A DNA stretch of 64,000 bases, taken from assembly GCA_017857855.1 (NCBI GenBank), contig JAFMCI010000005.1, positions 1,760 through 65,759 on the forward strand. The letters are read 5' to 3'. Of the stretch, positions 3,434 through 19,449 are shown in pieces. A program made the position numbers and the translations under genes. The stretch is from Bacteroidia bacterium (GTDB lineage Bacteria > Bacteroidota > Bacteroidia > NS11-12g > UBA9320). Below the pieces are notes generated by a model. That model was given only the letters and a program-made list of their open reading frames with translations, was not told the DNA's origin and made no database searches. Every line of letters starts with the position of its first letter. The stretch's first letter is position 1.

Positions 3434-4180
3434 TTATACTAAAAAAAGTTTGACCGTGGCTATTACCAATACTCCTGCAAGCAAATACTTAAGCGTGTTA
3501 ATGTTAAATTTTTGACTTCCATATAAAGCTCCTAAACTCCCACCTAACAAAGCAACAGGCATAAAATACCAGGCTTCCAAAGGTATTTGCTTGCCTTGAA
3601 TAATAAAGCCCGTTATTCCTGCAAGAGAATTGACAAAAATAAACAATGCAGAAACAGCAGCAGCTTGCTTCATGTTACCCCATCCAAGTAAGATAATAAT
3701 AGGACTTAATATAATTCCGCCTCCAATACCAATCATTCCAGAAAAGAGACCAATGGCTGATCCGATAATCAGTGATCCTGTGATACTAGATGGTACGATT
3801 TTGTTCTTTTCTGTGCCAAAAATATTGAGCATTCGTAGTATAGCGATGGCTAAAAAGAAACCTAATATTTTTTTATAAAGGCCGGCATCAATGGAAATAT
3901 ATCCGCCTAAAAATGCCATGGGGATGGACGTAATGGCGAAGGGATAAAATAGATTCCACTTAAAATGATTGTTCTTTTTAAAAAACCAAAAGGATACGCC
4001 TGAAACAAATACGTTGAGCAGCAATGCAGTTGGCTTCATACTAATTACGGGGAGCGAGAATAGTGCCATAAGTGCCAAATATCCGCTTGCGCCTCCATGA
4101 CCTACACTCGCGTATAAAAATGCCACTACGAGCAAAATACTCATGAACATAAACAAGATATCGAGCTTAAGTAGTTCCAC
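3434..4180 (-). CDS. TauE/SafE (DUF81) family sulfite/anion exporter-like membrane protein
   Basis: Very hydrophobic, about 8 TM segments, with two Gly-rich repeats (VGHGGASGY, IGIGGGIIL). The first codon at 4180 is GTG; in-frame ATGs at 4150 and 4144 are alternative starts. Confidence 0.7.
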   Translation of the reverse strand: MELLKLDILFMFMSILLVVAFLYASVGHGGASGYLALMALFSLPVISMKPTALLLNVFVSGVSFWFFKKNNHFKWNLFYPFAITSIPMAFLGGYISIDAGLYKKILGFFLAIAILRMLNIFGTEKNKIVPSSITGSLIIGSAIGLFSGMIGIGGGIILSPIIILLGWGNMKQAAAVSALFIFVNSLAGITGFIIQGKQIPLEAWYFMPVALLGGSLGALYGSQKFNINTLKYLLAGVLVIATVKLFLV

Positions 4181-4181
4181 T

Positions 4182-5351
4182 TTACAATTTTAAGTAGGTG
4201 ATTTTTTCTCCTTTTTTAATGAATGTTACGTGTGAAGGAATCACCAAAATCGCATTACACACTGCAAATGATTTTAGCATAGATGATGCTTGCCCAGATA
4301 GGAGAGTTGCTTGTTCATTCTCTACCATTCCTTTTAGAAAAAGTGTTTTACCCGATTTATTGTCAATATCATCAGCAGCAAAAGCCTCAGCACTTGGTAA
4401 ATGGCAATCCCGGTGACCCAGTTGTGCTTTTAGTAATGGCAGAACATAGATATAAAAACAACTTAAACTTGATGCAGGGTTTCCGGGTAAGGCAAATACC
4501 TTCGTTTTATCTTTAACGCCAAACCACAAGGGTTTTCCTGGACGTTGATTTACTTTATAAAAAACTTCAGAAACACCATTAGCCTCCAAGGCTTGCTTAA
4601 CGAAGTCATAATCGCCTACAGAAATACCACCAGATATTAATACAACATCAGATTGAGCGATACATTTTTTTATAGCTTCAGTAGTTTGTGCTAAGTCATC
4701 TCCAACCATAGCCGTATTGACCTTGTTAATGCCCAGACGTTTCAATGCCATTTTGAGCGTAATGGAGTTGCTCTCATACACTTGACCATCTTCAAGTTGA
4801 TCTCCAGATTGCTGTAATTCATTACCTGTGATGAGTATGCTCACTTTAGGTCTTTTGTATACCTTAACTCTAGTAGCGCCAATACTTGCCAAAAATCCAA
4901 TTGCCGCTTCATTTAGCTCAACTCCTTTGGTGAGCGCAATTTCTCCAGCATTTATTTGCTCTCCAATAGGACGAACATTAGCGTACTTATTGGGTAAAAT
5001 TTCAATATTTAGTTGATTGCCTTGACGCTGAACATGCTCCTGCATTATTACGGTATCTGCAGAATCTGGCACGCGAGCACCTGTAAATATTCGCACGGCT
5101 TCACCTTGATTTAGCTGCAAATTTCTTGCGCTACCTGCTTGTATTTCGCCCACAACGGTGTAACAATCACTGTCAGAATGAGCAAAGGCGTATCCATCCA
5201 TAGATGACTGTTTAAATGGTGGCATATGGATAGCTGAAATCACATCTTCTGCTAAAACTAAACCCATTGTCTTTATGATCGGTTTAACTTTTATTGCATT
5301 AAACTGTGCGTGTTTTTCGATGAGTTGAAGTGCTTCTGAAACAGATATCAT
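4182..5351 (-). CDS. moeA: Molybdopterin molybdenumtransferase MoeA
   Basis: 389 aa with MoeA-like segments SMDGYAF, ISGGISVGDYDFVK and ALPGNPASS. Confidence 0.85.
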   Translation of the reverse strand: MISVSEALQLIEKHAQFNAIKVKPIIKTMGLVLAEDVISAIHMPPFKQSSMDGYAFAHSDSDCYTVVGEIQAGSARNLQLNQGEAVRIFTGARVPDSADTVIMQEHVQRQGNQLNIEILPNKYANVRPIGEQINAGEIALTKGVELNEAAIGFLASIGATRVKVYKRPKVSILITGNELQQSGDQLEDGQVYESNSITLKMALKRLGINKVNTAMVGDDLAQTTEAIKKCIAQSDVVLISGGISVGDYDFVKQALEANGVSEVFYKVNQRPGKPLWFGVKDKTKVFALPGNPASSLSCFYIYVLPLLKAQLGHRDCHLPSAEAFAADDIDNKSGKTLFLKGMVENEQATLLSGQASSMLKSFAVCNAILVIPSHVTFIKKGEKITYLKL

Positions 5352-5380: not shown

Positions 5381-6349
5381 CTAGCAGCAACCTCCGCCGT
5401 CATAATGAAAAGTAGATTCACTAATAAAAATATCGTCTCGGTTTAACGATGCTAATGCTCCAGCGGTTTTATCACATACGGCAAGAGGCTGATTTTTGAG
5501 AAGTATATGGCCTTTTTGGTCATCAAAAACTTCATCGTCACCAAAGTAAATGGCGGCTTTGCCTGTGAAGATACAAGGACCATCTGCAGGCATAGGATCT
5601 TTAATGGCAGCCACCTCTATAGATTCGATGTAAATTACTTCATCTGTTTGGTAGTTTTTAGGGTCCAATATTCTGTAAGGCTTTCTAGCTCTAATTTCAA
5701 TGGTTCCAAAACCAGCATCAGTTAGTTTTTTAACGTATTCATCAATGGGCAAACTCCCACTTAAGCATAAAGCCCTCAGTCTATCGTCATTTCTCAAGGT
5801 CTCGTTCATAGGCTGTTCGCATGTAGGATCGCTCATTACCAATCTTCCATGAGGTTTTAACACCCGATACATTTCGTGTATCGCTTTTTCTAGGTCATTC
5901 TCTTTAAAAATATTAAACAAGCAGTTTTGAGCGGCAACATCAATAGTATTGTCTTCTACAGGTAGGTTCAGAGCATCTCCTTTTCTGAGATCGACAAAAC
6001 TGCTCTTAAACCAATTGTTTTGCGTTTCAGCTTCTATAAAGTTTTTGCGAGAAGCTTCTAGCATTTCATCAACTACATCTATACCTATAACACCATTTTC
6101 TTGTCTTGAAAAATAGGCAAATTGTAAAAGCTCCATACCACCACCAGCACCAACATATAATATCTTTGGATTGTTGGTTAAATCTCTTGCATGAACGGTG
6201 CTACCGCATCCATAGTTCATTCGTTGCATAATCAGTGGAATCTTTAATCCGGGTAGTTCCCAGATTGGATTGGTGGTGCAACATAGACCCACATTAGGTG
6301 TTAATGCAGCGTCTTTATATAAGTCGTTTGTAGCATCTAGATAGCTCAT
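5381..6349 (-). CDS. arsM: ArsM-like As(III) S-adenosylmethionine methyltransferase (arsenosugar-cluster type)
   Basis: SAM motif I ILYVGAGGGMEL. Cys residues sit at ArsM-like positions (GLCCTT, NYGCGST, AQNCLFN, ALCLSGS). The protein ends in GGGCC. ATGA overlap with the upstream PNP gene. Confidence 0.65.
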   Translation of the reverse strand: MSYLDATNDLYKDAALTPNVGLCCTTNPIWELPGLKIPLIMQRMNYGCGSTVHARDLTNNPKILYVGAGGGMELLQFAYFSRQENGVIGIDVVDEMLEASRKNFIEAETQNNWFKSSFVDLRKGDALNLPVEDNTIDVAAQNCLFNIFKENDLEKAIHEMYRVLKPHGRLVMSDPTCEQPMNETLRNDDRLRALCLSGSLPIDEYVKKLTDAGFGTIEIRARKPYRILDPKNYQTDEVIYIESIEVAAIKDPMPADGPCIFTGKAAIYFGDDEVFDDQKGHILLKNQPLAVCDKTAGALASLNRDDIFISESTFHYDGGGCC

Positions 6350-7158
6350 AAATTTTTAATTAATTGGGTGAATAAGATTACTAACTGTGGCTCTGTTTTT
6401 TCTACGATTTCCATTATCTCTGGTATATTGATTGGGCTCAAATTATTTGGATCACACTCATCTGTAAGTACAGAGATGGCCGCAACATGTAGGCTCAGTT
6501 GTTTGGCTACAATAACCTCAGGGACCGTACTCATACCCACTGCATCTGCACCTAGTATTTTAAGCATTCGATATTCTGCTCTTGTTTCCAATTGAGGGCC
6601 AACCACACTAGCATACACGCCTTTATTCAGTTTAATGTTCTGCTTTTGAGATATGGTTTCCAAAAGACCCATAAGACGAAAGTCATATGGCTCACTCATG
6701 TCTACAAACCTATCTCCAAGTTTTTCAATACCTTTAAACGCAAGAGGAGATCCGCCTTGTAAGTTAAGGTGATCTTCGACCATCATTAACTCTCCTTTTT
6801 TGTAAGCCAGATTAATGGCCCCTGCGGCATTACTCAACAATAGTGTATGAATTCCTAAAGCGTGCAAAACTCTAATAGGAAAAGTTACTTCATCTAGGCT
6901 ATAACCCTCGTAAACGTGCAATCGGCCTTGCATTACAAGCACTTTTTTGCCTTCAATGTCACCAAAAATCAACTTACCCGCATGGTATTCCACCGTAGAG
7001 TTAGCAAAATGCGGAATCTCTTGATAGGAAATCTCTTTAAGAATATTTACTTGGTCTATAAATTTATTTAAGCCAGTACCCAAAACAATGCCTATTTCAG
7101 GTTTTTCAATGCCGTGTTGTTGTAAAAATTGGGTGGTTTGCTTTAGCTGTTCTAACAT
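6346..7158 (-). CDS. Purine-nucleoside phosphorylase (trimeric PNP family)
   Basis: 270 aa with IGIVLGTGLNKF, LVMQGRLHVYEGY, GPQLETRAEYRML and GADAVGMSTVPEV, typical of PNP/MTAP family enzymes. Confidence 0.85.
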   Translation of the reverse strand: MLEQLKQTTQFLQQHGIEKPEIGIVLGTGLNKFIDQVNILKEISYQEIPHFANSTVEYHAGKLIFGDIEGKKVLVMQGRLHVYEGYSLDEVTFPIRVLHALGIHTLLLSNAAGAINLAYKKGELMMVEDHLNLQGGSPLAFKGIEKLGDRFVDMSEPYDFRLMGLLETISQKQNIKLNKGVYASVVGPQLETRAEYRMLKILGADAVGMSTVPEVIVAKQLSLHVAAISVLTDECDPNNLSPINIPEIMEIVEKTEPQLVILFTQLIKNL

Positions 7159-7778
7159 ATTACAGGATCTTTAGTTCTTTTAAGGTATTCTTTGTACAAT
7201 TTACTTGCGATCAAATCTTCGAAAGTGTCTATGTCATTTAAGGTGTTTAATAAACCTACTTTTATGTGATGTTTTTTGATTTCTGCTAACGTTATTTCGA
7301 GTAGCTCTGGCTCACTCCAAGGCTTATGCTCGAAAATATGATTAGTCATGCTAGATAATCCAACTAAATAATAGCCTCCGTCTGCTGCAGGACCAAATAC
7401 CATATCCTTATTTTCTAAATGTAAAAATGCATGACGAATTAACTCATCTGAAATGTCTGGTAAATCAGATCCGATCAAAACAATCTTTTTATAGCCTTGG
7501 TCAAAACCCTTTTGGAAAGCATTTTTCATCCGTTCACCTATATCTTCTCCATGCTGTACCATTTTGACATCTGAAAGCCATCTTGAATCATCTACCACCT
7601 CGGAATAGTAAATAATTTTATCCATAGGCAAAGATGATGTGGCACTCTCTGTTAAATCTAAAAGACGGTTGTATATCAACAAAGACTCATGACCGCCAAT
7701 ACTCTTTGCCAATCGGGTTTTTACCTTGCCTAAGACACTATTTTTAACAAAAATGATAACTAATAAATCTTGATTCAT
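7152..7778 (-). CDS. DUF2064-type nucleotidyl/glycosyltransferase-like protein (TIGR04282-like, rSAM-associated 'transferase 1')
   Basis: LLVIIFVKNSVLGKVKTRL and GPAADGGYYLVG are DUF2064 hallmarks, recalled from memory. I place the start at ATG 7778, 13 nt after the arsS stop. The track start at 7826 would overlap arsS by 35 nt. Confidence 0.6.
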   Translation of the reverse strand: MNQDLLVIIFVKNSVLGKVKTRLAKSIGGHESLLIYNRLLDLTESATSSLPMDKIIYYSEVVDDSRWLSDVKMVQHGEDIGERMKNAFQKGFDQGYKKIVLIGSDLPDISDELIRHAFLHLENKDMVFGPAADGGYYLVGLSSMTNHIFEHKPWSEPELLEITLAEIKKHHIKVGLLNTLNDIDTFEDLIASKLYKEYLKRTKDPVIC

Positions 7779-7791
7779 ACTTCTATTTAAT

Positions 7792-8847
7792 TTAGATAAC
7801 GGATCCTTGACAACTACTGCCTGCACCTGCGGTGCAACCGTAGCAATGCTGTGAAATGACTATATCTCTATTCCATAATACTTCCTCGTTAAAATCATTA
7901 ATGTGTTTTACCTTACTATTTACTTTAAGTTCTAACATTTGGTTGAAATCGCAATCATAAAGCCATCCATCCCAGCTTACAGATAGGGTATTTGTACACA
8001 TTACATTTGCCAACGCAGCAGGATTGAAAGCGTCAACCAAGGTATACATGTAGTCCTCATAATTATCTGAAACCAGGAGATAATCTAAAAATCTACTGAT
8101 AGGTAAATTGGTTATTGCAAAGAGATTATGGAAGTTTATTTGGAAATCTGTAATGAGATTTCTTTTAAACTCAATTTCTAAAGCCGTTTGGTCTCCAGGC
8201 AAGAAAGCACCTGATGGGTTGTACACTAAGTCTAGCTTTAGAGAACTTCCTGGCATTCCGTAACCTATTTCATTTAATTCTTGAAGTGCTTCTATTGATT
8301 TCTGAAAAACACCGTCGCCGCGTTGTTTATCTGTTTTACCTTTGGTCCAATGGGGCATTGATGATACGACATGAATATTGTGTTCTTTAAAAAAAAGAGG
8401 TAAATCATGGTACTTTTTGTTGGCCTTTATGATGGTAAGATTAGAACGAACAATAAAATCAGCTATTCCGAGCTTGGACGCTTCCTCTACAAACCATCTA
8501 AAATTCGGATTCATTTCTGGTGCACCTCCCGTCAAATCTAACGTATGCACACCCGTCTTTTTTATAACGTCTAGACACTGTAGCATGGTGTCTTTACTCA
8601 TTATTTCTTTACGATCTGGGCCTGCATCTACATGACAATGCTCACAAACTTGATTACACATATAACCAAGGTTTAGCTGCAAAATTTCCAATTTATTAGC
8701 TCGCAAGGGATGATCTTGTCCGTTGCTAATTTTATGCTTAAACGTAGGCAAAGAGCCATCCTTAAAAATTCCATTTGATAAAATTTCAAGTTGCTTCTGC
8801 GGCTTTGATAAGTGGTCTTCTCTAAGGTGCAACGACTTTTTAATCAT
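7792..8847 (-). CDS. arsS: ArsS-type radical SAM / Cys-rich domain protein (arsenosugar biosynthesis radical SAM family)
   Basis: CxxxCxxC motif (CNQVCEHC), LDLTGGAPEMNP, and the C-terminal Cys-rich tail CYGCTAGAGSSCQG. 1-nt TAATG overlap with the upstream gene. Confidence 0.7.
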   Translation of the reverse strand: MIKKSLHLREDHLSKPQKQLEILSNGIFKDGSLPTFKHKISNGQDHPLRANKLEILQLNLGYMCNQVCEHCHVDAGPDRKEIMSKDTMLQCLDVIKKTGVHTLDLTGGAPEMNPNFRWFVEEASKLGIADFIVRSNLTIIKANKKYHDLPLFFKEHNIHVVSSMPHWTKGKTDKQRGDGVFQKSIEALQELNEIGYGMPGSSLKLDLVYNPSGAFLPGDQTALEIEFKRNLITDFQINFHNLFAITNLPISRFLDYLLVSDNYEDYMYTLVDAFNPAALANVMCTNTLSVSWDGWLYDCDFNQMLELKVNSKVKHINDFNEEVLWNRDIVISQHCYGCTAGAGSSCQGSVI

Positions 8848-9182
8848 TACATAGAAAGCTTTTCATATTTGTTCATCATTTGAACTCCGTGTACCAAAGT
8901 TGCTCCACTCTCAATAGCTGCGCCCACATGAACGGCTTCCATCATTTCTTCTTTAGTAATTCCTTTTTGCAAACCATCTTTGGTGTATGCATCAATGCAA
9001 TAAGGACATTTTACAACATGTGATACTGCAAGTGCGATGAGCGACTTTTCCCTGGCAGTTAATGCTCCTTCTTTGAAGACTGAGCCGTAGTACTCAAAAA
9101 ATTTTTCGCCGAGCTCTTCACTCCAATCTGTGATATTTTTAAACTTTCTGAGGTCTTCTGTATTGTAATAGGTTTTGGACAT
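8847..9182 (-). CDS. Carboxymuconolactone decarboxylase/AhpD-like peroxidase-like protein (rSAM-cluster associated)
   Basis: 111 aa with the AhpD-type CxxC motif (VKCPYCIDAY). First gene of the minus-strand unit. Confidence 0.65.
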   Translation of the reverse strand: MSKTYYNTEDLRKFKNITDWSEELGEKFFEYYGSVFKEGALTAREKSLIALAVSHVVKCPYCIDAYTKDGLQKGITKEEMMEAVHVGAAIESGATLVHGVQMMNKYEKLSM

Positions 9183-9468
9183 GATTTAATGTAAGAAACG
9201 AAATTAACTAATATTGTCTGACTGAATGCCATAAAGGTTACATAAGCGTTTATTGCGACATTTTCTTATGTTTTGCAACTAATTAAAATAGCTTATTAAG
9301 TATTGATAATCAGATGTTTGTAATGATTAAATTGCTTAATAAACAAGTTTTACAACTTTATGGCTGCGCTATATTTTCCTGATTTTTTGTGTACAAATCA
9401 AGCGAAATAAAAACGAGTTAATCGGAAAGAATTAAAAAAAAATGTCCAAGTTTGAAGATTAATAATTT

Positions 9469-10770
9469 ATGTCTGAAGAACACGTAATTATCATTGGGAA
9501 TGGCATTTCTGGAATTACCGTTGCTCGGCATATTCGAAAACTTTCTGATAAAAAAATTACCGTTATTTCTAATGAATCCAATTATTTCTTTTCAAGAACA
9601 GCTCTAATGTATATTTACATGGGGCACATGAAATTTGAAAATACCAAACCCTATGAAGATTGGTTTTGGGAAAAAAATAACATTGAACTTAAGTTAGGAT
9701 CAGTTCAATCTGTTGATGCCCTGTCTAAAACAGTTTGTTTGGGGAATGATGAATCGATATCTTATGATAAATTGATTATAGCGTCTGGAAGTAAACCCAT
9801 TAAAATAGGTTGGCCCGGTCAGGATTTAATCGGAGTGCAAGGGTTCTATCACTTAGAAGATTTACACGCTTTAGAAAAGAATGCACCTGATAACATAAAA
9901 TGTAAAAGGGCCGTAATAGTGGGAGGTGGGCTTATTGGTATTGAACTCGCGGAGATGTTACAGTCTCGACATATTCCTGTTACCTTATTAGTCAGAGAAA
10001 ATAGTTTTTGGAATACCACATTAACTGACGGCGAGAGTGCAATGCTTAACCGGCATATAACTGCGCAGGGTATTGACTTAAGGTTAGGCGTGAGCTTAAA
10101 AGAAATACACGGAGATAACCTTGGCAATGTTAAATCGGTAACCATTTTGGAAACAAAAGAGGAAATACAATGTAATCTAGTGGCCTTAACGATTGGAGTT
10201 ACTCCCAATGTTGATTTTTTAGCGGATTCTACTATTGCTATTAATAGAGGTGTATTGACTAACAGATATTTTGAAACCAGTGTAAAAGATATATACGCTA
10301 TTGGTGATTGTGCCGAGCAGCAGCTACCTATTGAAAACAGAAATACTATCGAAGCTACTTGGTACACTGGAAGAATAATGGGTCAAACATTAGCAAATAC
10401 TATTTGCGGAAACAAGACAGAATACAATCCTGGCCATTGGTTTAATTCGGCAAAATTTATGGATATAGAATATCAAACTTATGGTATAGTGAATGTCCAG
10501 CCTGCAGAAAATCACAGCCATTTTTATTGGAAACATGACGACGACACTATGTCTTTAACGTTTGAGTACAATAAAAATTCTGGTGAATTTCAAGGTATAA
10601 ATTCCTTAGGCATTCGACTGCGACACGAAGTAATAGATAGATGGCTCAATGAAAAACGAGATTTAGAGTATGTACTACATCATTTGAACAAGGCTAATTT
10701 TGATGCTGAATTTTCTCGAAAGTATGAGAAGGAAATTTTTAATCTTTATAAATCTAAAGTAGAACTATAA
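9469..10770 (+). CDS. NAD(P)/FAD-dependent pyridine-nucleotide-disulfide-family oxidoreductase
   Basis: Two Rossmann loops (VIIIGNGISGITVA, AVIVGGGLIGIELA) and the FAD motif YAIGDCA. Confidence 0.8.
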   Translation: MSEEHVIIIGNGISGITVARHIRKLSDKKITVISNESNYFFSRTALMYIYMGHMKFENTKPYEDWFWEKNNIELKLGSVQSVDALSKTVCLGNDESISYDKLIIASGSKPIKIGWPGQDLIGVQGFYHLEDLHALEKNAPDNIKCKRAVIVGGGLIGIELAEMLQSRHIPVTLLVRENSFWNTTLTDGESAMLNRHITAQGIDLRLGVSLKEIHGDNLGNVKSVTILETKEEIQCNLVALTIGVTPNVDFLADSTIAINRGVLTNRYFETSVKDIYAIGDCAEQQLPIENRNTIEATWYTGRIMGQTLANTICGNKTEYNPGHWFNSAKFMDIEYQTYGIVNVQPAENHSHFYWKHDDDTMSLTFEYNKNSGEFQGINSLGIRLRHEVIDRWLNEKRDLEYVLHHLNKANFDAEFSRKYEKEIFNLYKSKVEL

Positions 10771-12347
10771 TGGCGATGAAAATTCATGACAATATTAGTA
10801 TGTCGCTGGCCAAACCAGATGATTTAGTGCTTTCTTTAAAGTTAAAGTGGGCAACGGGTGCCGCTTCTATTGGCTTAGGTTTGCTCATTTTAGCACTTGC
10901 TAATATTCAGCTTCCACAATCGAATATTATTCTAATCATTTCAATGCTGCTTTTGTCTTTTGGCGTAATTCTTTTTAGTCATGCACTTTATCGAAATCAC
11001 ATAAGTAGCAATAAAAACAACGGAATATGGTATAATTCTATCACTTCTAGAGGTTTGCAAGGATGGATGTTAGGACTTGTACTTACTTCTTTTTACATTG
11101 TGTTGTATTTCTATCCGAATCTTCTTGGACTAGGGTTAAACGGACAAGAAAACACCGGTTTAATACATTTATTTGATGCATTGAGCTTAAACCTAAATGG
11201 TCATAATGCTACTCAATGGTTTGTATATGGTACTTTATATACTTTAGCCATATTGCTTTTTGGATATAAATTCATGTTGAAGTATCAAAAGAATAGGTAT
11301 CAGCAATTAAGAACGTTATCGGTTATGTTTTTTCAACTTGGCTTTGCTTTTTTGATTCCAGAACTTATGTCAAAATTAAATTCAGAATCGTCTCAACTGC
11401 CTTATTACGACCTTAAAAATATATGGCCTTTAAATTATGCCCAATTTGAACAAGGCAGGGTAGATGGATTTTTGAACGGCAGTTCTTTAGGAATGCTCCT
11501 TTTAGCCTTTAGTATATTATCTGTATTTGTAATATCTCCTATTTTAACATATAAATATGGCAAAAGATGGTATTGCTCTTGGGTTTGTGGCTGCGGAGGC
11601 TTGGCAGAAACAGCAGGAGATTCTTTTCGTCATTTGAGTAGCAAAACCCTTAAGTCATGGAAGGTGGAACGATGGCTTATTCACGTCGTTTTGGTCTTTG
11701 TTATACTAATGACAGTCGCAGTTATATCTACCTATTTAGAGACTGATGCTCTCCAATATTGGCTCACGAGAGACGCCTTTCTAGTTTTGATTGGTGCTTT
11801 ACTGACCGTAGTATTTAGTTTGACCATGATTTTTAAACGCAAAGAGTTAGCACAAGATGCACAATATGCAGCGATAGGCTTTTTTGTACTTATACTGTCG
11901 TTGTTAGGCTTTCATTTTTTTAGCATTGGAAGTGAACTGTTTTTTATAGATGCAGAGACACTTCGCAGTTCCTATGGTTTTTTTATCGGTTCGATTTTTT
12001 CCGGAGTTATAGGAGTTGGGATGTACCCCATTTTGGGCAGTAGAGTTTGGTGTAGATTTGGTTGTCCAATGGCAGCAGTACTTGGTTTTCAGCAACGTTT
12101 ATTTTCTAAGTTCAGAATAACGACCAACGGTGGGCAATGTATTTCTTGCGGGAATTGTTCCACTTTCTGCGAGATGGGAATAGATGTTAGGGCTTATGCA
12201 CAAAAAGGAGAAAATATTGTAAGATCGAGCTGTGTAGGTTGCGGTATATGCGCAGATGTATGTCCGAGAGGTGTTCTAAAGTTGGAAAATGTGTCCATAA
12301 TCGAGGGATTAAATTTTCCGAAAATCAGAAAAGAAACAAAAGAATAA
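10770..12347 (+). CDS. Membrane polyferredoxin (NapH/FixG-like 4Fe-4S binding protein)
   Basis: About 10 TM segments with Cys clusters CSWVCGCGG and WCRFGCP. Two C-terminal ferredoxin motifs, CISCGNCSTFC and CVGCGICADVCP. TAATG overlap with the upstream reductase. Confidence 0.75.
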   Translation: MAMKIHDNISMSLAKPDDLVLSLKLKWATGAASIGLGLLILALANIQLPQSNIILIISMLLLSFGVILFSHALYRNHISSNKNNGIWYNSITSRGLQGWMLGLVLTSFYIVLYFYPNLLGLGLNGQENTGLIHLFDALSLNLNGHNATQWFVYGTLYTLAILLFGYKFMLKYQKNRYQQLRTLSVMFFQLGFAFLIPELMSKLNSESSQLPYYDLKNIWPLNYAQFEQGRVDGFLNGSSLGMLLLAFSILSVFVISPILTYKYGKRWYCSWVCGCGGLAETAGDSFRHLSSKTLKSWKVERWLIHVVLVFVILMTVAVISTYLETDALQYWLTRDAFLVLIGALLTVVFSLTMIFKRKELAQDAQYAAIGFFVLILSLLGFHFFSIGSELFFIDAETLRSSYGFFIGSIFSGVIGVGMYPILGSRVWCRFGCPMAAVLGFQQRLFSKFRITTNGGQCISCGNCSTFCEMGIDVRAYAQKGENIVRSSCVGCGICADVCPRGVLKLENVSIIEGLNFPKIRKETKE

Positions 12348-12348
12348 A

Positions 12349-13038
12349 GTGACTTGTATAAAAGTAATAATACCCGCTTTTAATGAAGAAGGCTCTATTG
12401 CTAAGGTAATAGCGGAAATACCCACAGAAGTAGATGAAATTATTGTAGTGAATAACAACTCTACAGACACTACTAAAGAAGTGGCACAAAGAGCCGGTGC
12501 AACGGTTATAGACGAAGATCAAAAAGGATATGGCTACGCTTGTCTTAAAGGTATGGAATATCTTGCTTTGAGTAAAATTAAGCCTGACATTGTTGTTTTT
12601 TTGGATGGAGATTACAGCGACTATCCTGAGGAGTTAACACAAATTATAAGACCAATTGTAGACGAAGACATAGATTTTGTAGTAGGTGCTCGTGTTAAGA
12701 AATGGAGAGAAGATGGCTCCATGACGCCTCAACAAATTTTTGGGAATTGGCTAGCTACCTCCTTAATGAGATTATTTTTCAATGCTGACTTTTCTGATTT
12801 GGGTCCATTTAGAGCCATAAAATACGATAAGCTTCTAGCACTAGAAATGGAAGATAAAACCTATGGGTGGACTGTAGAAATGCAACTTAAGGTCATTAAG
12901 CGAAAGTTAACTTATGTAGAAATTCCTGTACACTATAAAAGTAGGATTGGCGTTTCCAAAGTATCCGGAACTATAGAAGGTAGTGTTATGGCGGGGATAA
13001 AAATATTAACCTGGATTTTTAAATATAGCTTTAAATGA
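12349..13038 (+). CDS. Small family-2 glycosyltransferase (possibly TIGR04283-like 'transferase 2')
   Basis: The GT2 N-terminus VIIPAFNEE preceded by TCIK forces a GTG start at 12349, 1 nt after the polyferredoxin stop. DxD-like FLDGDYSD. 229 aa. Confidence 0.7.
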   Translation: MTCIKVIIPAFNEEGSIAKVIAEIPTEVDEIIVVNNNSTDTTKEVAQRAGATVIDEDQKGYGYACLKGMEYLALSKIKPDIVVFLDGDYSDYPEELTQIIRPIVDEDIDFVVGARVKKWREDGSMTPQQIFGNWLATSLMRLFFNADFSDLGPFRAIKYDKLLALEMEDKTYGWTVEMQLKVIKRKLTYVEIPVHYKSRIGVSKVSGTIEGSVMAGIKILTWIFKYSFK

Positions 13039-14519
13039 CGGCGTTAATTTATAGTATCATCATCGTTTACACGCTAATCGCGGCAATACTTTTTTTGTAT
13101 GCATGTGCTCAATTAAACCTGCTTTTTAACTATCTTAAGAGTAAGAAAACTAAGCTCACTCATAGTAAGATAGATCTTAATACCCTAAAAAAGGGTTATC
13201 CGAGGGTTACCATCCAACTACCTGTGTATAATGAATTCTATGTAATGAAAGCGTTACTAGAAAATATTGGCAAAATAGATTACCCAAAAGATAGATTAGA
13301 GATTCAAGTGCTTGATGATTCTACAGACGAATCTTACGAGTTAACTAAGACTTACGTTAGTCAGCTAAAGGATAAAGGCTTTGATATTAAACACCTCCAT
13401 CGTACCATCAGAGAAGGCTTTAAAGCGGGGGCCTTAAAAGAAGGCTTATCCTCTGCAACAGGAGATTTTATTGCCATTTTTGATGCAGATTTTCTTCCAA
13501 AAAGTAACTGGCTTTTAGAAACCTTGCCTTACTTTTCTGCTGATAATATTGGTGTAATACAAACACGTTGGACTCATATTAATAGGGATTACTCGCTTCT
13601 GACCAAGGTTCAAGCATTCATGCTTGATGCACATTTTACCATTGAACAAGTGGGACGCAATTCCAAAAACCATTTTATTAATTTCAATGGAACTGCAGGT
13701 ATTTGGCGAAAATCATGCATACTTGACGCTGGAAATTGGAATGGAGACACCTTAACTGAAGATTTAGATTTGAGTTATAGAGCTCAACTCAAAAATTGGA
13801 AATTTATTTTTTTAGAAGACGTAGAAACGCTAGCAGAACTTCCTGTTGTTATCGCTGCGGCAAAATCACAGCAATTTAGATGGAATAAAGGAGCTGCAGA
13901 AAATTTTAGAAAAAATATAAAGCGCCTATATCAAAATAAAAATATCGCTGCAATTACCAAGATACATGGAACATTTCACCTCCTTAATAGTTCTATGTTC
14001 TTAGGCGTTTTCATAATTGCTCTCTTAAGTGTTCCGATGCTTTATATCAAAACGCAGTATCCCATACTACAAGGGTATTTCGTCGTAATGGGTTTCTTTG
14101 TGATTACAACACTCATATTTTTACTGTATTATTGGGTTATGTACAAAAAGGTTTATGGCAAAGGACTGGTTCATTTCATTCGGTTTATTGGCTTATTTCT
14201 GGCTTTTTTCTCTATTGCAGTAGGACTTTCATTGCACAATACATGGGCTGTGTTAGAGGGGCATTTGGGTAAAAAAAGTGATTTTATTCGTACCCCTAAA
14301 TTCAATCTAACGTCAGGGTTTAATAGCATACTAGAAAATAAATACCTAGCTAAAAACATCTCTGCAACAAGTGTAGCAGAGGGCATACTTATGCTCTACT
14401 TTTCTTTTGGTATTTACAGCGCTTTCAAACTGGGAGATTTCGGTTTTACTCTATTTCATCTGATGTTGGTGTTTGGGTTCGGATACTTATTTTTTCAGTC
14501 ATTGATGACCAAACGATAA
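13035..14519 (+). CDS. Processive membrane family-2 glycosyltransferase (cellulose-synthase-like / lipid glycosyltransferase-like)
   Basis: N-terminal TM segment, then LDDSTD, FDADF, TEDLDLSYR and QQFRWNKG (QxxRW), followed by about 4 C-terminal TM segments. ATGA overlap with the upstream GT2. Confidence 0.8.
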   Translation: MTALIYSIIIVYTLIAAILFLYACAQLNLLFNYLKSKKTKLTHSKIDLNTLKKGYPRVTIQLPVYNEFYVMKALLENIGKIDYPKDRLEIQVLDDSTDESYELTKTYVSQLKDKGFDIKHLHRTIREGFKAGALKEGLSSATGDFIAIFDADFLPKSNWLLETLPYFSADNIGVIQTRWTHINRDYSLLTKVQAFMLDAHFTIEQVGRNSKNHFINFNGTAGIWRKSCILDAGNWNGDTLTEDLDLSYRAQLKNWKFIFLEDVETLAELPVVIAAAKSQQFRWNKGAAENFRKNIKRLYQNKNIAAITKIHGTFHLLNSSMFLGVFIIALLSVPMLYIKTQYPILQGYFVVMGFFVITTLIFLLYYWVMYKKVYGKGLVHFIRFIGLFLAFFSIAVGLSLHNTWAVLEGHLGKKSDFIRTPKFNLTSGFNSILENKYLAKNISATSVAEGILMLYFSFGIYSAFKLGDFGFTLFHLMLVFGFGYLFFQSLMTKR

Positions 14520-14545
14520 AAGATATATAGAACTAAAGAAGTTGT

Positions 14546-15898
14546 ATGCAGTACTCAAAGCATTCCAAAAATATACTTCTACTGGTTACCATTCTTCTGA
14601 GTTTGATAACCTATTATTTTATGGGTTATTCGCTAGAGCGATCAGCGTTTTCTTTCATACTCTTATCCTATTTAATCTTATTTATCTGCAGTTATATGCT
14701 TATTCATTTTAACAAGCATAATTACATCCTTTTGGCTTCTCTAGCAGTTTTGTTTCGTTTAATACTGCTTGTTGCAATACCTGAATTATCCCAAGACTTT
14801 TATAGGTTTATATGGGATGGTAGATTGCTTCTAAAAGGCTTTAATGTCTATATATCTACTCCTAATTCATTTATCACTTCAGGACAGATTCCCATAGCAC
14901 AAGCCCAGTTATTAATAGACGGAATGGGAGCACTGAGCGCTGGTAATCACACCAACTACCCTCCATTAAATCAGCTTTGTTTCATGCTCGCTGGCATGGG
15001 AGCAGGAAATAGTATACTAGGTTCTGTTATGATAATGAGAATACTCATTATTTTAGCAGATATAGGAACGTTATACATTGGAACTAAACTCCTGATTAAG
15101 TTTCATCTTCCAGTCCATAGAATATTCTTTTATATGTTAAATCCTTTAATTATTATTGAGCTTACAGGCAATTTGCATTTTGAATCTTTAATGGTTTTCT
15201 TCCTAGTTCTTAGCATTTATTTTCTCCAAATAGATAGATGGAAATTATCAGCCTTTGTGTTTTCGTTAGCTATTTCGGTTAAACTTATTCCATTGCTTTT
15301 TATCCCATTGCTGTATAAAAAACTTGGTGCCCAAAAATGGGTTATGTATAGCTCCATAGTAGCGTTAGTGACTACGCTTAGTTTCATGCCGTTTTTGTCT
15401 ATTGATTTTTTACAACACTACACCCAAACCGTTGGATTATGGTTTCAGAAATTCGAGTTTAATGCAAGTGTCTATTATCTCATTAGAGAACTATCCTATT
15501 GTTTTAGAGGATACAACGAAATAGCTCTAATAGGACCTGCATTAGCTATTGTAGTACTTGTTTTTACGCTTACCGCAGGCATATTAAACGGGAACAAGCA
15601 TTTTCTTGGTTTATTAGGTAATATGATAATGGTGTTATCGGTGTATTTTTTATGCGCTACAACTGTTCATCCATGGTACATCGCAACACCATTATTTCTA
15701 TCCATATTTTTATCGTATCGTTTTATTGCTGTATGGAGTTTTGCAGTAGTTTTAAGTTATTCGGCCTATACAAGCACGGGGTTTTACGAAAATGGGTGGT
15801 TCATTGCGCTTGAGTATTTACTAGTCTACGGAACCTTGTTTTACGAGATTTATCACAAAAAAAAATCTTATTTCAGTCTAGTACATAGAGTGAAATAA
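14546..15898 (+). CDS. Polytopic GT-C-like membrane protein (DUF2029/GT87-like putative glycosyltransferase)
   Basis: 450 aa with at least 10 TM segments. An early loop motif ELSQDFYRFIWDG resembles GT-C/DUF2029 proteins. The assignment is tentative. Confidence 0.4.
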   Translation: MQYSKHSKNILLLVTILLSLITYYFMGYSLERSAFSFILLSYLILFICSYMLIHFNKHNYILLASLAVLFRLILLVAIPELSQDFYRFIWDGRLLLKGFNVYISTPNSFITSGQIPIAQAQLLIDGMGALSAGNHTNYPPLNQLCFMLAGMGAGNSILGSVMIMRILIILADIGTLYIGTKLLIKFHLPVHRIFFYMLNPLIIIELTGNLHFESLMVFFLVLSIYFLQIDRWKLSAFVFSLAISVKLIPLLFIPLLYKKLGAQKWVMYSSIVALVTTLSFMPFLSIDFLQHYTQTVGLWFQKFEFNASVYYLIRELSYCFRGYNEIALIGPALAIVVLVFTLTAGILNGNKHFLGLLGNMIMVLSVYFLCATTVHPWYIATPLFLSIFLSYRFIAVWSFAVVLSYSAYTSTGFYENGWFIALEYLLVYGTLFYEIYHKKKSYFSLVHRVK

Positions 15899-15939
15899 GA
15901 TTTTTAAATTAGGATGTAATCCTTAGAACTGAAGTCAGG

Positions 15940-16815
15940 CTATCGCTGTCCTTTTTTAAATCCGTAGATACTTTGGCTAATAAAATCTTGTGGGAATTTA
16001 TCATCCCCTTCAAATCCAATTTCAATAGTACCGCTATCTTCAGGAACATAACTTGTTTTAAATAGGTAGTCCCATAGACTTAAACTAATACCATAGTTAA
16101 CTCCGAATTTTCCTTCAGGAAGCGTGTAAGCATGATGATATAAGTGCATTACAGGATTATTAACTAGAAACTTTAATGGTCCCCAGGTAATTTTAATATT
16201 AGCATGGTTTAAATGGCCAATGGTAATCGCTATAAAGTGTACAATATAAGCTTGTTCTGGTTCAAAACCTCCTAAAATCATTACCCCAAAAGTTTTAAGT
16301 GGTTTATAAAATACATTCTCCATCCAATGATATCGTAAATGAGCCGCAAAGCCCATTTCTTTAACACTATGATGCACCTTATGAAATTTCCATAAAAATG
16401 GATAACGGTGTAATAAGACATGTGTAAACCACTGCACAAAATCTAATATTATAAAGAATACAAGCAATTGAAGTCCTGCCGCCCATTTTGAAATATCCAT
16501 AATCGCTAGGCTTTTTGAACCGATATTAAACGCTTCAAACGTCACGCTCATTACTTGATAAAAGCCACTGATAATAATAGAAAAAATAAAGAAGTTGAAA
16601 AACATATAGAATGAATCCAACCAAAAATCTTTTCTAATTATCGCTTGATTTTTTCGCCACGGAAAAGATATTTCTAATAGCCAAACAGCTAGAGAAAGTA
16701 CAATTAGGCCCCAAAAGTAATTGGTGTAATAAGGTACTTCAAAAATGATTGATTTCCATGTCCAATCAACGGTTCCCAAAAATGCATTTTTAAATGCGTC
16801 TAAGTAGTTATTCAT
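15940..16815 (-). CDS. Fatty acid hydroxylase / sterol desaturase family di-iron membrane enzyme
   Basis: Histidine boxes HVLLH, HKVHH and HLYHH in a 4-TM context. Confidence 0.75.
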   Translation of the reverse strand: MNNYLDAFKNAFLGTVDWTWKSIIFEVPYYTNYFWGLIVLSLAVWLLEISFPWRKNQAIIRKDFWLDSFYMFFNFFIFSIIISGFYQVMSVTFEAFNIGSKSLAIMDISKWAAGLQLLVFFIILDFVQWFTHVLLHRYPFLWKFHKVHHSVKEMGFAAHLRYHWMENVFYKPLKTFGVMILGGFEPEQAYIVHFIAITIGHLNHANIKITWGPLKFLVNNPVMHLYHHAYTLPEGKFGVNYGISLSLWDYLFKTSYVPEDSGTIEIGFEGDDKFPQDFISQSIYGFKKGQR

Positions 16816-16817
16816 TT

Positions 16818-17756
16818 TTATTTATTTTTAGTTGTTATATCATTAATAATAGGTAGCGTGTCTATATAGCTCCATTCAGTCCATGACCCGTCATAATTTC
16901 GAACATTGGTGTAGCCCAATAGTTGAGTAAGCACAAATGATGTATGTGCAGATCTCACACCACTATGGCAGTAAACTATAATGGGATCCTCTTTTTTTGC
17001 TCCTAGTTTCGAATAAATTTCTTCCAACTCTTCTAGATGTTTAAAACATTGGTCTCCATTGTAATCAATCGATTCAGCCCAATCTATATGAACACTATTG
17101 GGAATTCTACCGGCCCTTGTGGCACCTTTTTTTTGCTCTTTACCCACAAATTCATCCAACGTTCTCGTATCCAGAAGAAAAGTACCATTGTCTATGGCTT
17201 TGAGCACATCGTTTTTGTCGACATAAAAGTCCATTGAAGGCTGCTTATCCAGCATAAAATCTGTTTTTGTCCTAGTAGGTATTTGCGTGCTAAGTTCCCC
17301 ACCGATTTTTGTCCATGAAGAAAGACCTCCTTCCAACATTTTAACGTTTTTAAAATCGTAGTTCTGTAAGATCCACCAGAGTCTTGAAGCATTACATAGG
17401 CCTATATCATCGTATATTATGAGGGTATCTTCCAATCTTATTCCAAGATTACTGAAAAGCGATTCTATTTGTGAAGGAGTGGCCATCATACCATCATAAG
17501 AATACGTCGAATCTTCTATTTCTGTACGCCAAATATTCAATGAGCCTTCAATATGGCCTTTTATATAATCTTTATTTCTCCTGAAATCTATGATTACGGT
17601 ATTTGATTGATTGCTCACAGACAAAAGTCCTTCTGCACTTATTAAACAAAGCGATGAAGGCTTATTGGCATGGTTATCCATCTTTTCTGATGGTTGACAA
17701 GCAAACAGCACAAGGCTAAAAATAAAAGTACTATAGCTCCATTTCATACCATTCAA
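16818..17756 (-). CDS. Tandem-rhodanese sulfurtransferase, lipoprotein
   Basis: Lipobox (LVLFAC), two rhodanese domains, and the active-site loop CHSGVRSA. It overlaps the upstream cytochrome gene by 26 nt, or 17 nt if the start is the ATG at 17747. Confidence 0.8.
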   Translation of the reverse strand: MNGMKWSYSTFIFSLVLFACQPSEKMDNHANKPSSLCLISAEGLLSVSNQSNTVIIDFRRNKDYIKGHIEGSLNIWRTEIEDSTYSYDGMMATPSQIESLFSNLGIRLEDTLIIYDDIGLCNASRLWWILQNYDFKNVKMLEGGLSSWTKIGGELSTQIPTRTKTDFMLDKQPSMDFYVDKNDVLKAIDNGTFLLDTRTLDEFVGKEQKKGATRAGRIPNSVHIDWAESIDYNGDQCFKHLEELEEIYSKLGAKKEDPIIVYCHSGVRSAHTSFVLTQLLGYTNVRNYDGSWTEWSYIDTLPIINDITTKNK

Positions 17757-18183
17757 TATTTTCTAATATCATCCGTCTGCCTTTTGATGTAGGTGGATAG
17801 TTTTTAACCAGATAGTTAACAATTATTTCTTGATTGCCACCTAGATCCCATAATCCCTGTGTTTCCTGCATCCATTTGATGGTTTCATTCCATCGTTCTG
17901 CAGACATTCTATTTTGCGTGATAATTTTTGCTGAATGACAGCTGGTGCAATTGGTCACCACAGACATCATTCCTTCAGCTTCAAGCAAACCTGTTCTCAT
18001 ATGAATCCCATTTTCAATTAAGTCAGGATCCACAGGCGCTTCGACTATTGCAACTTCTGCGGGAGTGGTGAGGTCAATGATAAGGTAAGTTAACGACGCT
18101 GCATAAATTACAGATAGCAGAGCTGCCCATTTTATTAATCGCTTGATTTTAGATACACGTATAGAAAAATTAGTGGACGTCAT
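17731..18183 (-). CDS. Membrane-anchored monoheme cytochrome c subunit
   Basis: One N-terminal TM segment and a single CxxCH motif (CTSCH). The start codon directly abuts the stop of the molybdoenzyme gene. Confidence 0.6.
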   Translation of the reverse strand: MTSTNFSIRVSKIKRLIKWAALLSVIYAASLTYLIIDLTTPAEVAIVEAPVDPDLIENGIHMRTGLLEAEGMMSVVTNCTSCHSAKIITQNRMSAERWNETIKWMQETQGLWDLGGNQEIIVNYLVKNYPPTSKGRRMILENIEWYEMEL

Positions 18184-19449
18184 CTATTTTACTTTTACAG
18201 CTATTCTGTGACATGCATTGTTGAGGTATCCTTTAGGATTCCAACCTGGCAATAGCATGGGCTGTGCTATTCCATTACTATCTGTGGCCTTTGCCCATAT
18301 TTCGTAGTAACCAGAGGAGGGAAGTTTCACTGTGGCGGAAAAATGTTGCCACGCTAACCTATTTGCGGGTTTTTTTAATGCACAACTATTCCATGTAGAG
18401 CCAAAGTCAATAGAGTATTCCATTTTAGATACTTCTAATTCCCCAGCCCAAGCGTGCCCATTAATGATTACTGACTTACCTGCGAGAATAGCTCCCGTTT
18501 TGGGTGAGGTAATTATAGATTTTACGGGCATAGATTCAATAATGCGCATTTCCTCTTCTTTTACTTTTTCACCCGGAGCTACTGGTTTGGACGGAACCTT
18601 ATAGGCCCCAATCATTTTAGTACCATCATGTACTTTATTCCTGATACTTATTCTGTTTACCCACTTGCCAGATACTGAAGCTGGCCATCCGCCTGCAACT
18701 AAGCGCAATGGGAAACCATGTACCATTGGAATATCTTTACCGTTCATTTTAAAGGCCAATAAAGTTTCATCTTGCATAGCTTTACTCATGGGACAACCTC
18801 TAGAAATAGGTTCTTTTTTGGGGTCTTTACTAAGATGTTGATCTACTGCGTGAAAACCTATATAAACAGCATTACTTTTTATACCTACATCGTTTAAGAG
18901 ATCTTTAAGCCTGATACCTGTCCAGCTGGCACAATGCACAGCACCCAATGTCCATTGGTTCCCTTTGGCAGGTGGATCAAACTCATTTCTGCCATTACCT
19001 GCACATTCTATAGTTAATTGATATGTATATTGTTTAAACTTAGATTTCAATTCTGCCAATGTGTACGTTTTTTGTTTTGAAACAGACTCTCCATCTATAG
19101 TAAGTGTCCAATTGCTTGCGTCTAACGCTTCTGGTAGCAATCCATTATTCCGTATAAACATAGAAGCATTTGGCGTTACATTATCATTTAGTAAATGAAC
19201 CTTTGGTTCAACATTCCAAGGCTTATCATTAAGTACAGTCATTCCTTTGTTTTTGTTAAACATAGCAAACGGATCGACACCTTCCAGAGCCAAAGGAGTA
19301 TAATCTTTTGGTAGCTTAGCCCCAAATATTATTTCTGCACCTAACAGCATAGCGAATGAGCTTAAGGTGGCTTTTTTAACGAACTCTCTTCTTTTCAATT
19401 TCTTAAATGATAAGTTAATGTATGAATAAAAACGCTGCAAATTACTCAT
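18184..19449 (-). CDS. Sulfite-oxidase-fold molybdopterin oxidoreductase (SorA-like), Tat-exported
   Basis: Twin-arginine signal (KRREFVKKATL). SUOX-family segments include IECAGNGR, CASWTGIRLKDLL and GFPLRLVAGGWPAS, plus a C-terminal Ig-like dimerisation domain. Confidence 0.75.
   Translation of the reverse strand: MSNLQRFYSYINLSFKKLKRREFVKKATLSSFAMLLGAEIIFGAKLPKDYTPLALEGVDPFAMFNKNKGMTVLNDKPWNVEPKVHLLNDNVTPNASMFIRNNGLLPEALDASNWTLTIDGESVSKQKTYTLAELKSKFKQYTYQLTIECAGNGRNEFDPPAKGNQWTLGAVHCASWTGIRLKDLLNDVGIKSNAVYIGFHAVDQHLSKDPKKEPISRGCPMSKAMQDETLLAFKMNGKDIPMVHGFPLRLVAGGWPASVSGKWVNRISIRNKVHDGTKMIGAYKVPSKPVAPGEKVKEEEMRIIESMPVKSIITSPKTGAILAGKSVIINGHAWAGELEVSKMEYSIDFGSTWNSCALKKPANRLAWQHFSATVKLPSSGYYEIWAKATDSNGIAQPMLLPGWNPKGYLNNACHRIAVKVK

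Follow-up and report, generated by a model that had tools for sequence, protein, structure and literature searches.

A conserved reductase, polyferredoxin and glycosyltransferase operon linked to arsenosugar genes in Bacteroidota

A five-gene operon beside an arsenosugar module

In a 64,000-nucleotide stretch of DNA from a Bacteroidia bacterium (contig JAFMCI010000005.1, positions 1,760 to 65,759; the whole stretch is called the window here), five co-directional genes at 9469-15898 encode a flavoprotein reductase (RED), a membrane polyferredoxin (PFD) and three glycosyltransferases (GTs), namely a small soluble and a synthase-type family 2 enzyme (GT2s and GT2p) and a GT-C enzyme, and they diverge from a module of arsenosugar (ars) genes. 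A preliminary description made from the sequence alone had singled out these genes, and the ends of the open reading frames (ORFs) and the junction letters agree with it: the junctions are, in order, TAATG, TAA-A-GTG, ATGA and a 26-nucleotide (nt) gap, and the coordinates confirm a 286-bp gap between RED and the divergent AhpD-like gene. Domain searches upheld the gene contents given there (a reductase, a polyferredoxin, two GT2 enzymes and a GT-C-like protein), and the divergent ArsS/ArsM module is genuine, with all five of its genes exceeding curated NCBIfam cutoffs (Table 1). None of the five operon proteins reached the cutoff of a named equivalog in the NCBIfam profile search; the operon is assembled from known kinds of parts.

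Table 1 Features of the operon, the arsenosugar module and the adjoining genes in the window
Feature	Coordinates	Strand	Basis
Arsenosugar-type ArsM (NF038099)	5381-6349	-	573.3 bits, cutoff 400
Purine nucleoside phosphorylase (PNP)	6346-7158	-	328 bits, cutoff 218
TIGR04282 protein	7152-7826	-	188.9 bits, cutoff 134
ArsS (TIGR04167)	7792-8847	-	432.8 bits, cutoff 300
AhpD-like protein (TIGR04169)	8847-9182	-	193.9 bits, cutoff 120
Divergent intergenic region, AhpD-like gene to RED, 286 bp	9183-9468		ORF coordinates
RED, soluble FAD/NAD(P)H flavoprotein, ferredoxin/rubredoxin-reductase branch	9469-10770	+	Pyr_redox_2
PFD, membrane polyferredoxin with ~10 transmembrane segments, distantly NapH-like	10770-12347	+	Fer4_5 and dicluster Fer4
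GT2s, small soluble GT-A family 2 enzyme, nearest polyprenyl/dolichyl-phosphate hexose synthases	12349-13038	+	Profile matches
GT2p, synthase-type membrane family 2 enzyme	13035-14519	+	Pfam matches and motifs
GT-C glycosyltransferase, MptA/B-GT87-ALG3 type	14546-15898	+	Pfam ALG3 and fold
Membrane di-iron FA_hydroxylase-family protein, convergent with GT-C	15940-16815	-	FA_hydroxylase, 87 bits
Tandem rhodanese	16818-17756	-	Two Rhodanese domains

RED matched Pyr_redox_2 at 175 bits, carries GxGxxG motifs at residues 10 and 152, lacks any hydrophobic or transmembrane (TM) segment, and contains five scattered cysteines (90, 145, 235, 281 and 313) that form no CxxxxC pair. A Pyr_redox_2 domain with GxGxxG motifs for FAD and NAD(P)H and without a redox cysteine pair is the pattern of ferredoxin/rubredoxin-NAD(P)+ reductases, and a PDB sequence search returned ferredoxin, rubredoxin and putidaredoxin reductases, together with CoA-disulfide reductases, as the best relatives; the best named-equivalog profile gave 163 bits against a cutoff of 579. 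An antisense ORF of 172 amino acids (aa) at 9849-10367 on the minus strand lies entirely within the RED coding region and was rejected as almost certainly spurious because it overlaps strongly conserved coding sequence.

PFD matched Fer4_5 and dicluster Fer4 profiles, and its AlphaFold2 (AF2) model contained ten long helices (predicted template modelling score, pTM, 0.74), with the iron-sulfur (Fe-S) domain modelled at low confidence. All 13 cysteines were invariant across 92 homologues, among which the membrane domain was highly conserved and retained many invariant polar residues. The preliminary reading of about ten TM segments and two 4Fe-4S motifs held, the latter being two CxxCxxCxxxC motifs at 457 and 488, whereas the further clusters that it gave as CxxCxC are in fact C269-x3-C273-x-C275 (CX3CXC) and C428-x3-C432-P (CX3CP). 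Like the membrane ferredoxins NapH, NosH, NosR and CcoG, PFD combines CX3CP with two cytoplasmic [4Fe-4S] motifs on a polytopic protein, a combination that also marks NapH/MauN, and it matches NapH/MauN weakly; it differs from these proteins in having about ten helices instead of 4-6 and in being partnered by a cytoplasmic FAD reductase instead of a periplasmic redox enzyme. A NapH/MauN equivalog assignment was rejected, as TIGR02163 gave 51.5 bits against a cutoff of 213 over the C-terminal 150 residues only and the family has 4 TM segments, not about ten. Comparing the AlphaFold model with the PDB gave a best E value of 2.3, with no fold match and no functional lead.

In distant PFD relatives of 670-790 aa (P0199, P0208, P0215, P0246 and P0256), an N-terminal Pyr_redox_3/Pyr_redox_2 flavoprotein is fused to the NapH-like Fe-S membrane domain, and the joining of the two parts in one polypeptide provides Rosetta-stone support for RED and PFD functioning together. 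Counting the ten model helices back from a cytoplasmic Fe-S C-terminus would place every cysteine motif of PFD on the cytoplasmic side, which would have electrons pass from NAD(P)H through FAD and the Fe-S clusters to a target in the conserved membrane domain.

Of the glycosyltransferases, GT2s (229 aa, no TM segment) matched Glycos_transf_2 at 76 bits, and its best profiles were AglJ (119 bits, cutoff 325), a Dol-P-hexose transferase (63 bits, cutoff 375) and PpgS (61 bits, cutoff 370); judged by these profiles, it is related to polyprenyl- and dolichyl-phosphate hexose synthases and an equivalog of none of them. Its D86xD88 motif is present, and residues 4-207 align to DPMS (PDB 5mlz), with the soluble-acceptor enzymes MpgS and GpgS being equally good PDB matches. 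An earlier suggestion that this gene belongs to TIGR04283 was not borne out. We rejected the assignment at 37.0 bits against a cutoff of 182, reached over the N-terminal 100 residues only, and synteny argues against it too: true TIGR04283 members (238 bits in L052 and L009; L numbers denote the related loci described below) have a gene of their own that follows DUF547 and lies upstream of GH113 and RED, in loci that also contain a GT2s orthologue. When a true TIGR04283 protein was compared with the window by tblastn, GT2s was the only match, at 31% identity over 103 aa.

GT2p matched the Pfam families Glyco_tranf_2_3, Glyco_trans_2_3 and Glycos_transf_2 and carries the motifs D94, D150xD152, T241ED and Q279QFRW; a single hydrophobic segment lies at its N-terminal end and four lie at its C-terminal end. 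These motifs and flanking TM segments are those of processive synthase-type GT2 enzymes of the BcsA/PgaC/NodC class, and BcsA was the top PDB sequence match; the profile scores fell far below the cutoffs of the named equivalogs PgaC (94.7 bits, cutoff 422), CelA (87.1 bits, cutoff 699) and NodC (27.4 bits, cutoff 550).

The GT-C protein exceeded the cutoff of Pfam ALG3 (29.3 against 23.6 bits), and its orthologues matched PF26314 (MptA_B_family) and PF09594 (GT87); it scored 32.7 bits against the MptA equivalog cutoff of 439, and the orthologue in L095 scored 39.1 bits against the MptB cutoff of 40. Given that a PDB sequence search returned zero matches, a fold search was needed. With the AF2 model (predicted local distance difference test, pLDDT, 89; pTM 0.90) as query, the top nine Foldseek matches all belonged to the GT-C superfamily, led by ALG6 (E 4e-5) and comprising in addition glycosylphosphatidylinositol (GPI) mannosyltransferase I (GPI-MT-I, PIG-M), ALG3, a GPI-transamidase subunit (twice), PimE (twice), ALG9 and EmbB. 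Among them, ALG6, PIG-M, ALG3, PimE and ALG9 use lipid-phosphate-sugar donors, and the GPI-transamidase subunit shares the GT-C fold. The first outer loop contains two aspartates, D84 and D91, that were invariant in 66 sequences, so that the protein combines the GT-C fold, a family profile above threshold and the first-loop acidic residues of this class.

The length of the 286-bp intergenic region stood, while for its proposed role as a control region the promoter searches gave nothing decisive. A sigma-70 promoter scan of 9000-17000 found fewer promoter-like sites than in shuffled sequences, and such a scan is uninformative for a Bacteroidota genome; the Bacteroidetes -7 motif TAnnTTTG was absent from the intergenic region and not enriched across the window. 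A terminator scan of 9000-17000 found one weak terminator-like site, inside GT2p. The intergenic region contains an imperfect 16-nt inverted repeat at 9285-9300 and 9335-9350 (81% complementary, 34 nt apart), which could be an operator.

Conservation of the operon and its linkage to arsenosugar genes

PFD has thousands of close homologues, with at least 594 confirmed matches in the genome collection, and occurs in hundreds of cultured Flavobacteriaceae species; the family is compact, a search of 1.8 billion proteins yielding 213 cluster representatives at E <= 1e-30. The proteins of the window and of reference loci served as tblastn queries against 166 related loci and their flanks (10 kb at most), and partners were counted in the 102 loci that have at least 8 kb upstream and at least 6 kb downstream of PFD, 84 of them GT-bearing and 18 GT-less. 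By this comparison, RED-PFD-(a small ORF, Z, in many genomes)-GT2s-GT2p-GT-C is one conserved operon, found in at least 84 loci across Flavobacteriaceae and other, unclassified Bacteroidota-type metagenome contigs. The order of GT2s, GT2p and GT-C and their short or overlapping junctions were kept even where the PFD orthologue is 43-50% identical to that of the window.

The common Flavobacteriaceae arrangement has three parts. The first contains genes for an AhpD-like protein, ArsS, a rhodanese (NF045521), TIGR04282, PNP, ArsM, an FA-hydroxylase, DUF547 and TIGR04283; the second, on the opposite strand, is a GH113 operon, often with DUF547b, two genes of unknown function, two POTRA proteins and a metallophosphoesterase; and the third is RED, PFD, an ORF of ~155 aa (56 loci), GT2s, GT2p and GT-C. 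In most related loci the ars module lies upstream of the operon and is co-directional with it. RED was present in the flank, and adjoined PFD, in 84/84 GT-bearing loci. DUF547 was found in 75/84 GT-bearing and 3/18 GT-less loci and GH113 in 71/84 and 5/18, POTRA outer-membrane proteins lay by the operon in 46 loci, and the hydroxylase gene was present in 37/80 Flavobacteriaceae loci.

Within 10 kb, ars-set genes were present in 65/84 GT-bearing loci against 3/18 GT-less ones, so that a neighbourhood check across Bacteroidota bears out the proposed association. ArsS or ArsM accounted for 38/84 and 2/18 loci, respectively, accessory genes of the set only (TIGR04282, TIGR04283, rhodanese or AhpD-like) for 27/84 and 1/18, and no ars-set gene lay in the flank of 19/84 and 15/18. 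For a slightly narrower ars gene set, the numbers of loci with and without it were 62 and 22 (GT-bearing) against 2 and 16 (GT-less), with a Fisher p of ~1e-6 that is uncorrected for phylogeny. Chance alone would put an ars locus no more than 10 kb from any particular locus in ~0.5% of 4-Mb genomes, and the linkage between the operon and the arsenosugar genes is far beyond that expectation.

At least five gene orders preserve this linkage. L052, L009 and L115 show the canonical co-directional arrangement, the window and L002 have the ars module inverted and divergent, L106 and L164 carry it downstream of GT-C, and in L157 TIGR04282-PNP lies immediately upstream of RED. In a lineage whose PFD is ~45% identical to that of the window, the genes directly after RED-PFD-GT2s-GT2p-GT-C encode an NF045521 rhodanese and a genuine TIGR04282 member (206-212 bits, cutoff 134), with overlaps of 8 nt between GT-C and TIGR04282 in L091 and of 28 nt between GT-C and the NF045521 rhodanese in L095. 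In L104, a one-strand array comprises an FNR-like regulator, an NF045521 rhodanese (188 bits), DUF547, RED, PFD, GT2p and GT2s, and further along GT-C and then GH113. That the linkage survives so many rearrangements is the strongest argument here, and supports a functional coupling of the operon to the arsenosugar gene set.

The redox pair itself is more widely distributed. It had been described as hard-wired to the glycosyltransferases, which is not strictly so, as RED lies beside PFD in 15/18 GT-less loci; neither GT nor ars genes accompany RED-PFD in Microscilla, Halocola and Fulvivirga, and Limibacter has PFD by itself. A DUF547 gene lies between RED and PFD in two metagenome loci, L106 (8986-9996) and L112, and in Fulvivirga (L084) DUF547 is the sole conserved neighbour of RED-PFD; the DUF547 protein may be a third subunit or a substrate-handling partner of the redox pair.

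Other genes were seen in or beside the operon in some lineages. CRP/FNR-family regulators adjoin it in three distant lineages (L091 16123-16800, L095 11727-12404 and L104 6393-7106), a hint that redox state or oxygen may control it. Inside the cluster of L104, the gene at 18125-19342 encodes a fusion of an alpha/beta-hydrolase with an OsmC-like (thiol peroxidase-type) domain, which recalls the AhpD-like protein of the ars module. In L095, the operon tail contains a ParE toxin ORF, with an IS701 transposase alongside.

Measured against these loci, the window is an atypical, reduced and rearranged version of the operon, reduced because the most constant partners, DUF547 and GH113, are absent. 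TIGR04283, DUF547, GH113 and the NF045521 rhodanese were not found anywhere in the 64-kb window, which also lacks a ~300-aa gene of unknown function, the two POTRA outer-membrane proteins and the ~155-aa ORF between PFD and GT2s that are seen in L052, L009, L072, L167 and L168. The ars module is inverted and divergent from RED, and the hydroxylase gene, which follows ArsM in canonical loci, lies on the far side of GT-C. An uncultured Bacteroidia chromosome (L002) has the same layout, but without ArsM beside PNP. At 30489-31178 on the minus strand, a protein shows weak similarity (25-33% identity) to the ~155-aa MORN-like ORF found between PFD and GT2s elsewhere, and is probably an unrelated repeat-protein paralogue.

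The hydroxylase of the window contains four His-box motifs and scored 91 bits against an OlsE-like profile with a cutoff of 475. The tandem rhodanese next to it scored 47 bits against the NF045521 cutoff of 145, is 30% identical to the small rhodanese of L052 over 126 aa, and possibly substitutes for the absent NF045521 protein. Just past ArsM lie co-directional genes for MoaC/MoaB, MoaE, MoeB and MoeA (811-5351, minus strand), and past the hydroxylase (16818-19449, minus strand) the tandem rhodanese is accompanied by a SorB-like cytochrome c and a SorA-like sulfite dehydrogenase, a molybdenum-cofactor enzyme. These sulfur and molybdenum genes would be in keeping with a module that turns thiosulfate into sulfane sulfur and disposes of sulfite, and they may be linked to thio-arsenicals.

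A candidate route beyond ArsS and its rivals

The gene structure, domain families and conservation of the operon, the fold of its GT-C protein and its linkage to arsenosugar genes are established. The operon had been held to match no known pathway, and this stands: it is real and conserved, and a literature search (ArsS/arsenosugar, TIGR families, DUF547, polyferredoxin, arsenolipid in Bacteroidetes) found no paper describing the cluster or the five-gene combination. Arsenosugars and arsenolipids are made in large amounts by marine organisms and enter seafood. The steps that lead to them from dimethylarsinoyl-adenosine, the ArsS product, are to our knowledge not known, and the same search returned no description of them.

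Several characterized systems resemble parts of the operon. ArsS, ArsM, TIGR04169, TIGR04282 and PNP, which stand beside it in the window and are joined in related loci by TIGR04283 and the NF045521 rhodanese, constitute an arsenosugar gene neighbourhood, but the set as described (by NCBIfam model names and the literature search) includes no reductase, polyferredoxin, DPM1-like GT2, synthase GT2, GT-C, GH113 or DUF547. Three-component periplasmic glycosylation systems (GtrA/GtrB/Gtr-GT-C, CsbB/YfhO, GacI/GacL and Ppm1-MptA/MptB/PimE) likewise pair a small GT2 with a GT-C enzyme, whereas the operon has no recognised flippase gene and its GT2s has no TM helices; we know of none that also includes a GT2 of the synthase type together with an NAD(P)H/Fe-S redox pair. 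GT2p shares the D/DxD/TED/QxxRW motifs of synthase-dependent exopolysaccharide systems (BcsA-BcsZ for cellulose, PgaC-PgaB for poly-N-acetylglucosamine), with BcsA and PgaC as its best matches, and relatives of the operon similarly pair GT2p with a glycoside hydrolase (GH113) and outer-membrane proteins; by contrast with the BcsA/PgaC systems, a PilZ domain and any partner resembling BcsB or PgaA are missing, and the window lacks the hydrolase and the outer-membrane proteins. The mycobacterial DprE1/DprE2-DPA-Emb/Aft pathway offers a conceptual parallel, in which GT-C enzymes consume a pentofuranose that has gone through flavoprotein-dependent redox chemistry while carried on polyprenyl phosphate. 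The resemblance is purely one of analogy, with no sequence relationship found between RED/PFD and DprE1/DprE2.

Taking these observations together, we tentatively favour, with a confidence that stops short of even, a reading from the sequences in which the operon would be a lipid-carrier line that makes a glycan or glycolipid of the envelope, draws on an activated arsenosugar and has a membrane reductase attached to it. The feed would begin with ArsM, supplying trivalent dimethylarsenic (DMAs(III)), and pass through ArsS, giving dimethylarsinoyl-adenosine, PNP, giving arseno-ribose-1-phosphate, and TIGR04282, which as a CofC-like nucleotidyltransferase would give NDP-arseno-ribose for a GT2. 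GT2s would load the sugar onto polyprenyl phosphate at the inner membrane face, GT-C would consume the lipid-phosphate-sugar at the outer face, and GT2p would make, and probably translocate, the acceptor glycan or glycolipid. Cytoplasmic RED would pass NAD(P)H electrons via FAD to the cytoplasmic Fe-S clusters of PFD, the ten-helix domain of which would reduce a membrane acceptor, either a lipid-linked intermediate or a quinone. In most relatives the full system would be completed by GH113, DUF547 and two POTRA proteins, with GH113 and POTRA serving in trimming and export. The operon would thereby fix arseno-ribose into a membrane or envelope glycoconjugate; what we infer here comprises all of the substrates, which way the electrons flow and what they reach, and the participation of arsenic in the glycan.

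Several observations weigh against this reading, and some of them fit an arsenic-independent operon for a mannan-like or other periplasmic or surface glycan, in which GT2s would be a polyprenyl-phosphate-mannose synthase, GT-C a mannosyltransferase, GT2p the backbone synthase, GH113 a trimming mannanase and RED-PFD-DUF547 a redox modification unit, the proximity of ars genes reflecting inherited synteny or loose co-regulation. The GT-C orthologues match MptA_B/GT87, and these relatives and the source annotations, which say mannosyltransferase, indicate mannose and not an arseno-pentose; GH113, the commonest neighbour after DUF547, is a beta-mannanase family. The 19 GT-bearing loci with no ars-set gene within 10 kb include several from Aquimarina and also L085, which has the full operon and GH113, and no ars gene was visible in L167 and L168, where the upstream flank is shorter. 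Much of the co-localisation lies within a single family, Flavobacteriaceae, and could in part be inherited synteny. The occurrence of RED-PFD without GT or ars genes in other genera means that its role may be general, and the pathway may be incomplete in the window, which has no TIGR04283, DUF547 or GH113. In addition, in the lineages where a TIGR04282 or rhodanese gene lies within the operon, the flank contains neither ArsS nor ArsM, so these two proteins may serve a function unrelated to arsenic, and the accessory 'arsenosugar' families appear to belong to the redox/GT system as much as to ArsS/ArsM. Against the arsenic-independent explanation stand the persistence of the ars linkage across at least five gene orders and out to PFD orthologues of ~45% identity, the overlap in L091 between the GT-C gene and TIGR04282, whose family definition rests on association with ArsS, and the fact that ars genes go with loci that bear the GTs and not with RED-PFD by itself. 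On balance we consider it a serious contender that is nevertheless rather unlikely to be correct.

Two further explanations make the redox pair an electron donor to a neighbouring enzyme. The preliminary description suggested that RED and PFD could feed electrons to the radical-SAM enzyme or keep methylated arsenic (or selenium) reduced. Taken as an explanation of the pair, this would have RED-PFD reduce the [4Fe-4S] cluster of ArsS or keep dimethylarsenic trivalent for it, with the GT genes as mere passengers in the operon. Radical-SAM enzymes require a low-potential reductant, DMAs(III) is readily oxidised in aerobes, RED and PFD would make an NAD(P)H-to-Fe-S chain, and in the window 286 bp separate the start of RED from the ars module. 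That RED-PFD serves as a dedicated donor to ArsS is nonetheless very unlikely, because the ArsS adenosylation of DMAs(III) is reported to be redox-neutral and to call for no stoichiometric reductant after priming (PMC13598754), RED-PFD occurs in several orders with no ars gene nearby, with ArsS or ArsM in just two of the 18 GT-less RED-PFD loci, and the ars genes track the GT-bearing form; moreover, a ten-helix domain with invariant polar residues exceeds what the reductant of a soluble enzyme would need. Alternatively, RED-PFD could donate electrons to the di-iron hydroxylase at 15940-16815, which would modify a lipid for the GTs in the manner of the rubredoxin reductase-rubredoxin-AlkB system. 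Membrane di-iron hydroxylases need two electrons per turnover, the four His boxes are in place, the nearest solved relatives of RED include rubredoxin and ferredoxin reductases, and the hydroxylase gene recurs in Flavobacteriaceae and is still adjacent in the rearranged window. We hold this explanation to be improbable as well: the gene is absent from the distant RED-PFD-GT lineages L085, L090-L096 and L101-L105, canonical loci place it with ArsM instead of RED, and RED-PFD is accompanied much more constantly by DUF547.

For the favoured lipid-carrier line with an arsenosugar input, a more specific form can be proposed for marine Flavobacteriia, which we regard as quite doubtful. Here 5-deoxy-5-dimethylarsinoyl-ribose would be placed on polyprenyl phosphate and transferred by GT-C to a glycan or glycolipid made by GT2p, not released as small solutes, and the NAD(P)H-driven polyferredoxin would be a novel type of membrane reductase acting on the lipid-linked arsenical before flipping, for example from As(V)=O to As(III).

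The operon, which is widespread in marine Flavobacteria, is thus a candidate for the late steps of bacterial arsenosugar metabolism. The cluster gives an ordered list of candidates, namely phosphorolysis by PNP, nucleotide activation by TIGR04282, transfer by the DPM1-like GT2 or TIGR04283, then GT-C and the synthase GT2, and attaches a membrane reductase to this set of candidate arsenosugar enzymes; hundreds of cultured species of Flavobacteriaceae carry PFD, which makes genetic work and arsenic speciation feasible. Even without a role for arsenic, an NAD(P)H-polyferredoxin pair within a polyprenyl-phosphate/GT-C operon is an arrangement for which we found no described precedent, and the membrane domain of PFD has no solved structural relative. 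If the arsenic-containing glycoconjugate proved true, it would rank as the first bacterial cell-envelope polymer to contain arsenic, and its assembly as the first enzymology past ArsS.

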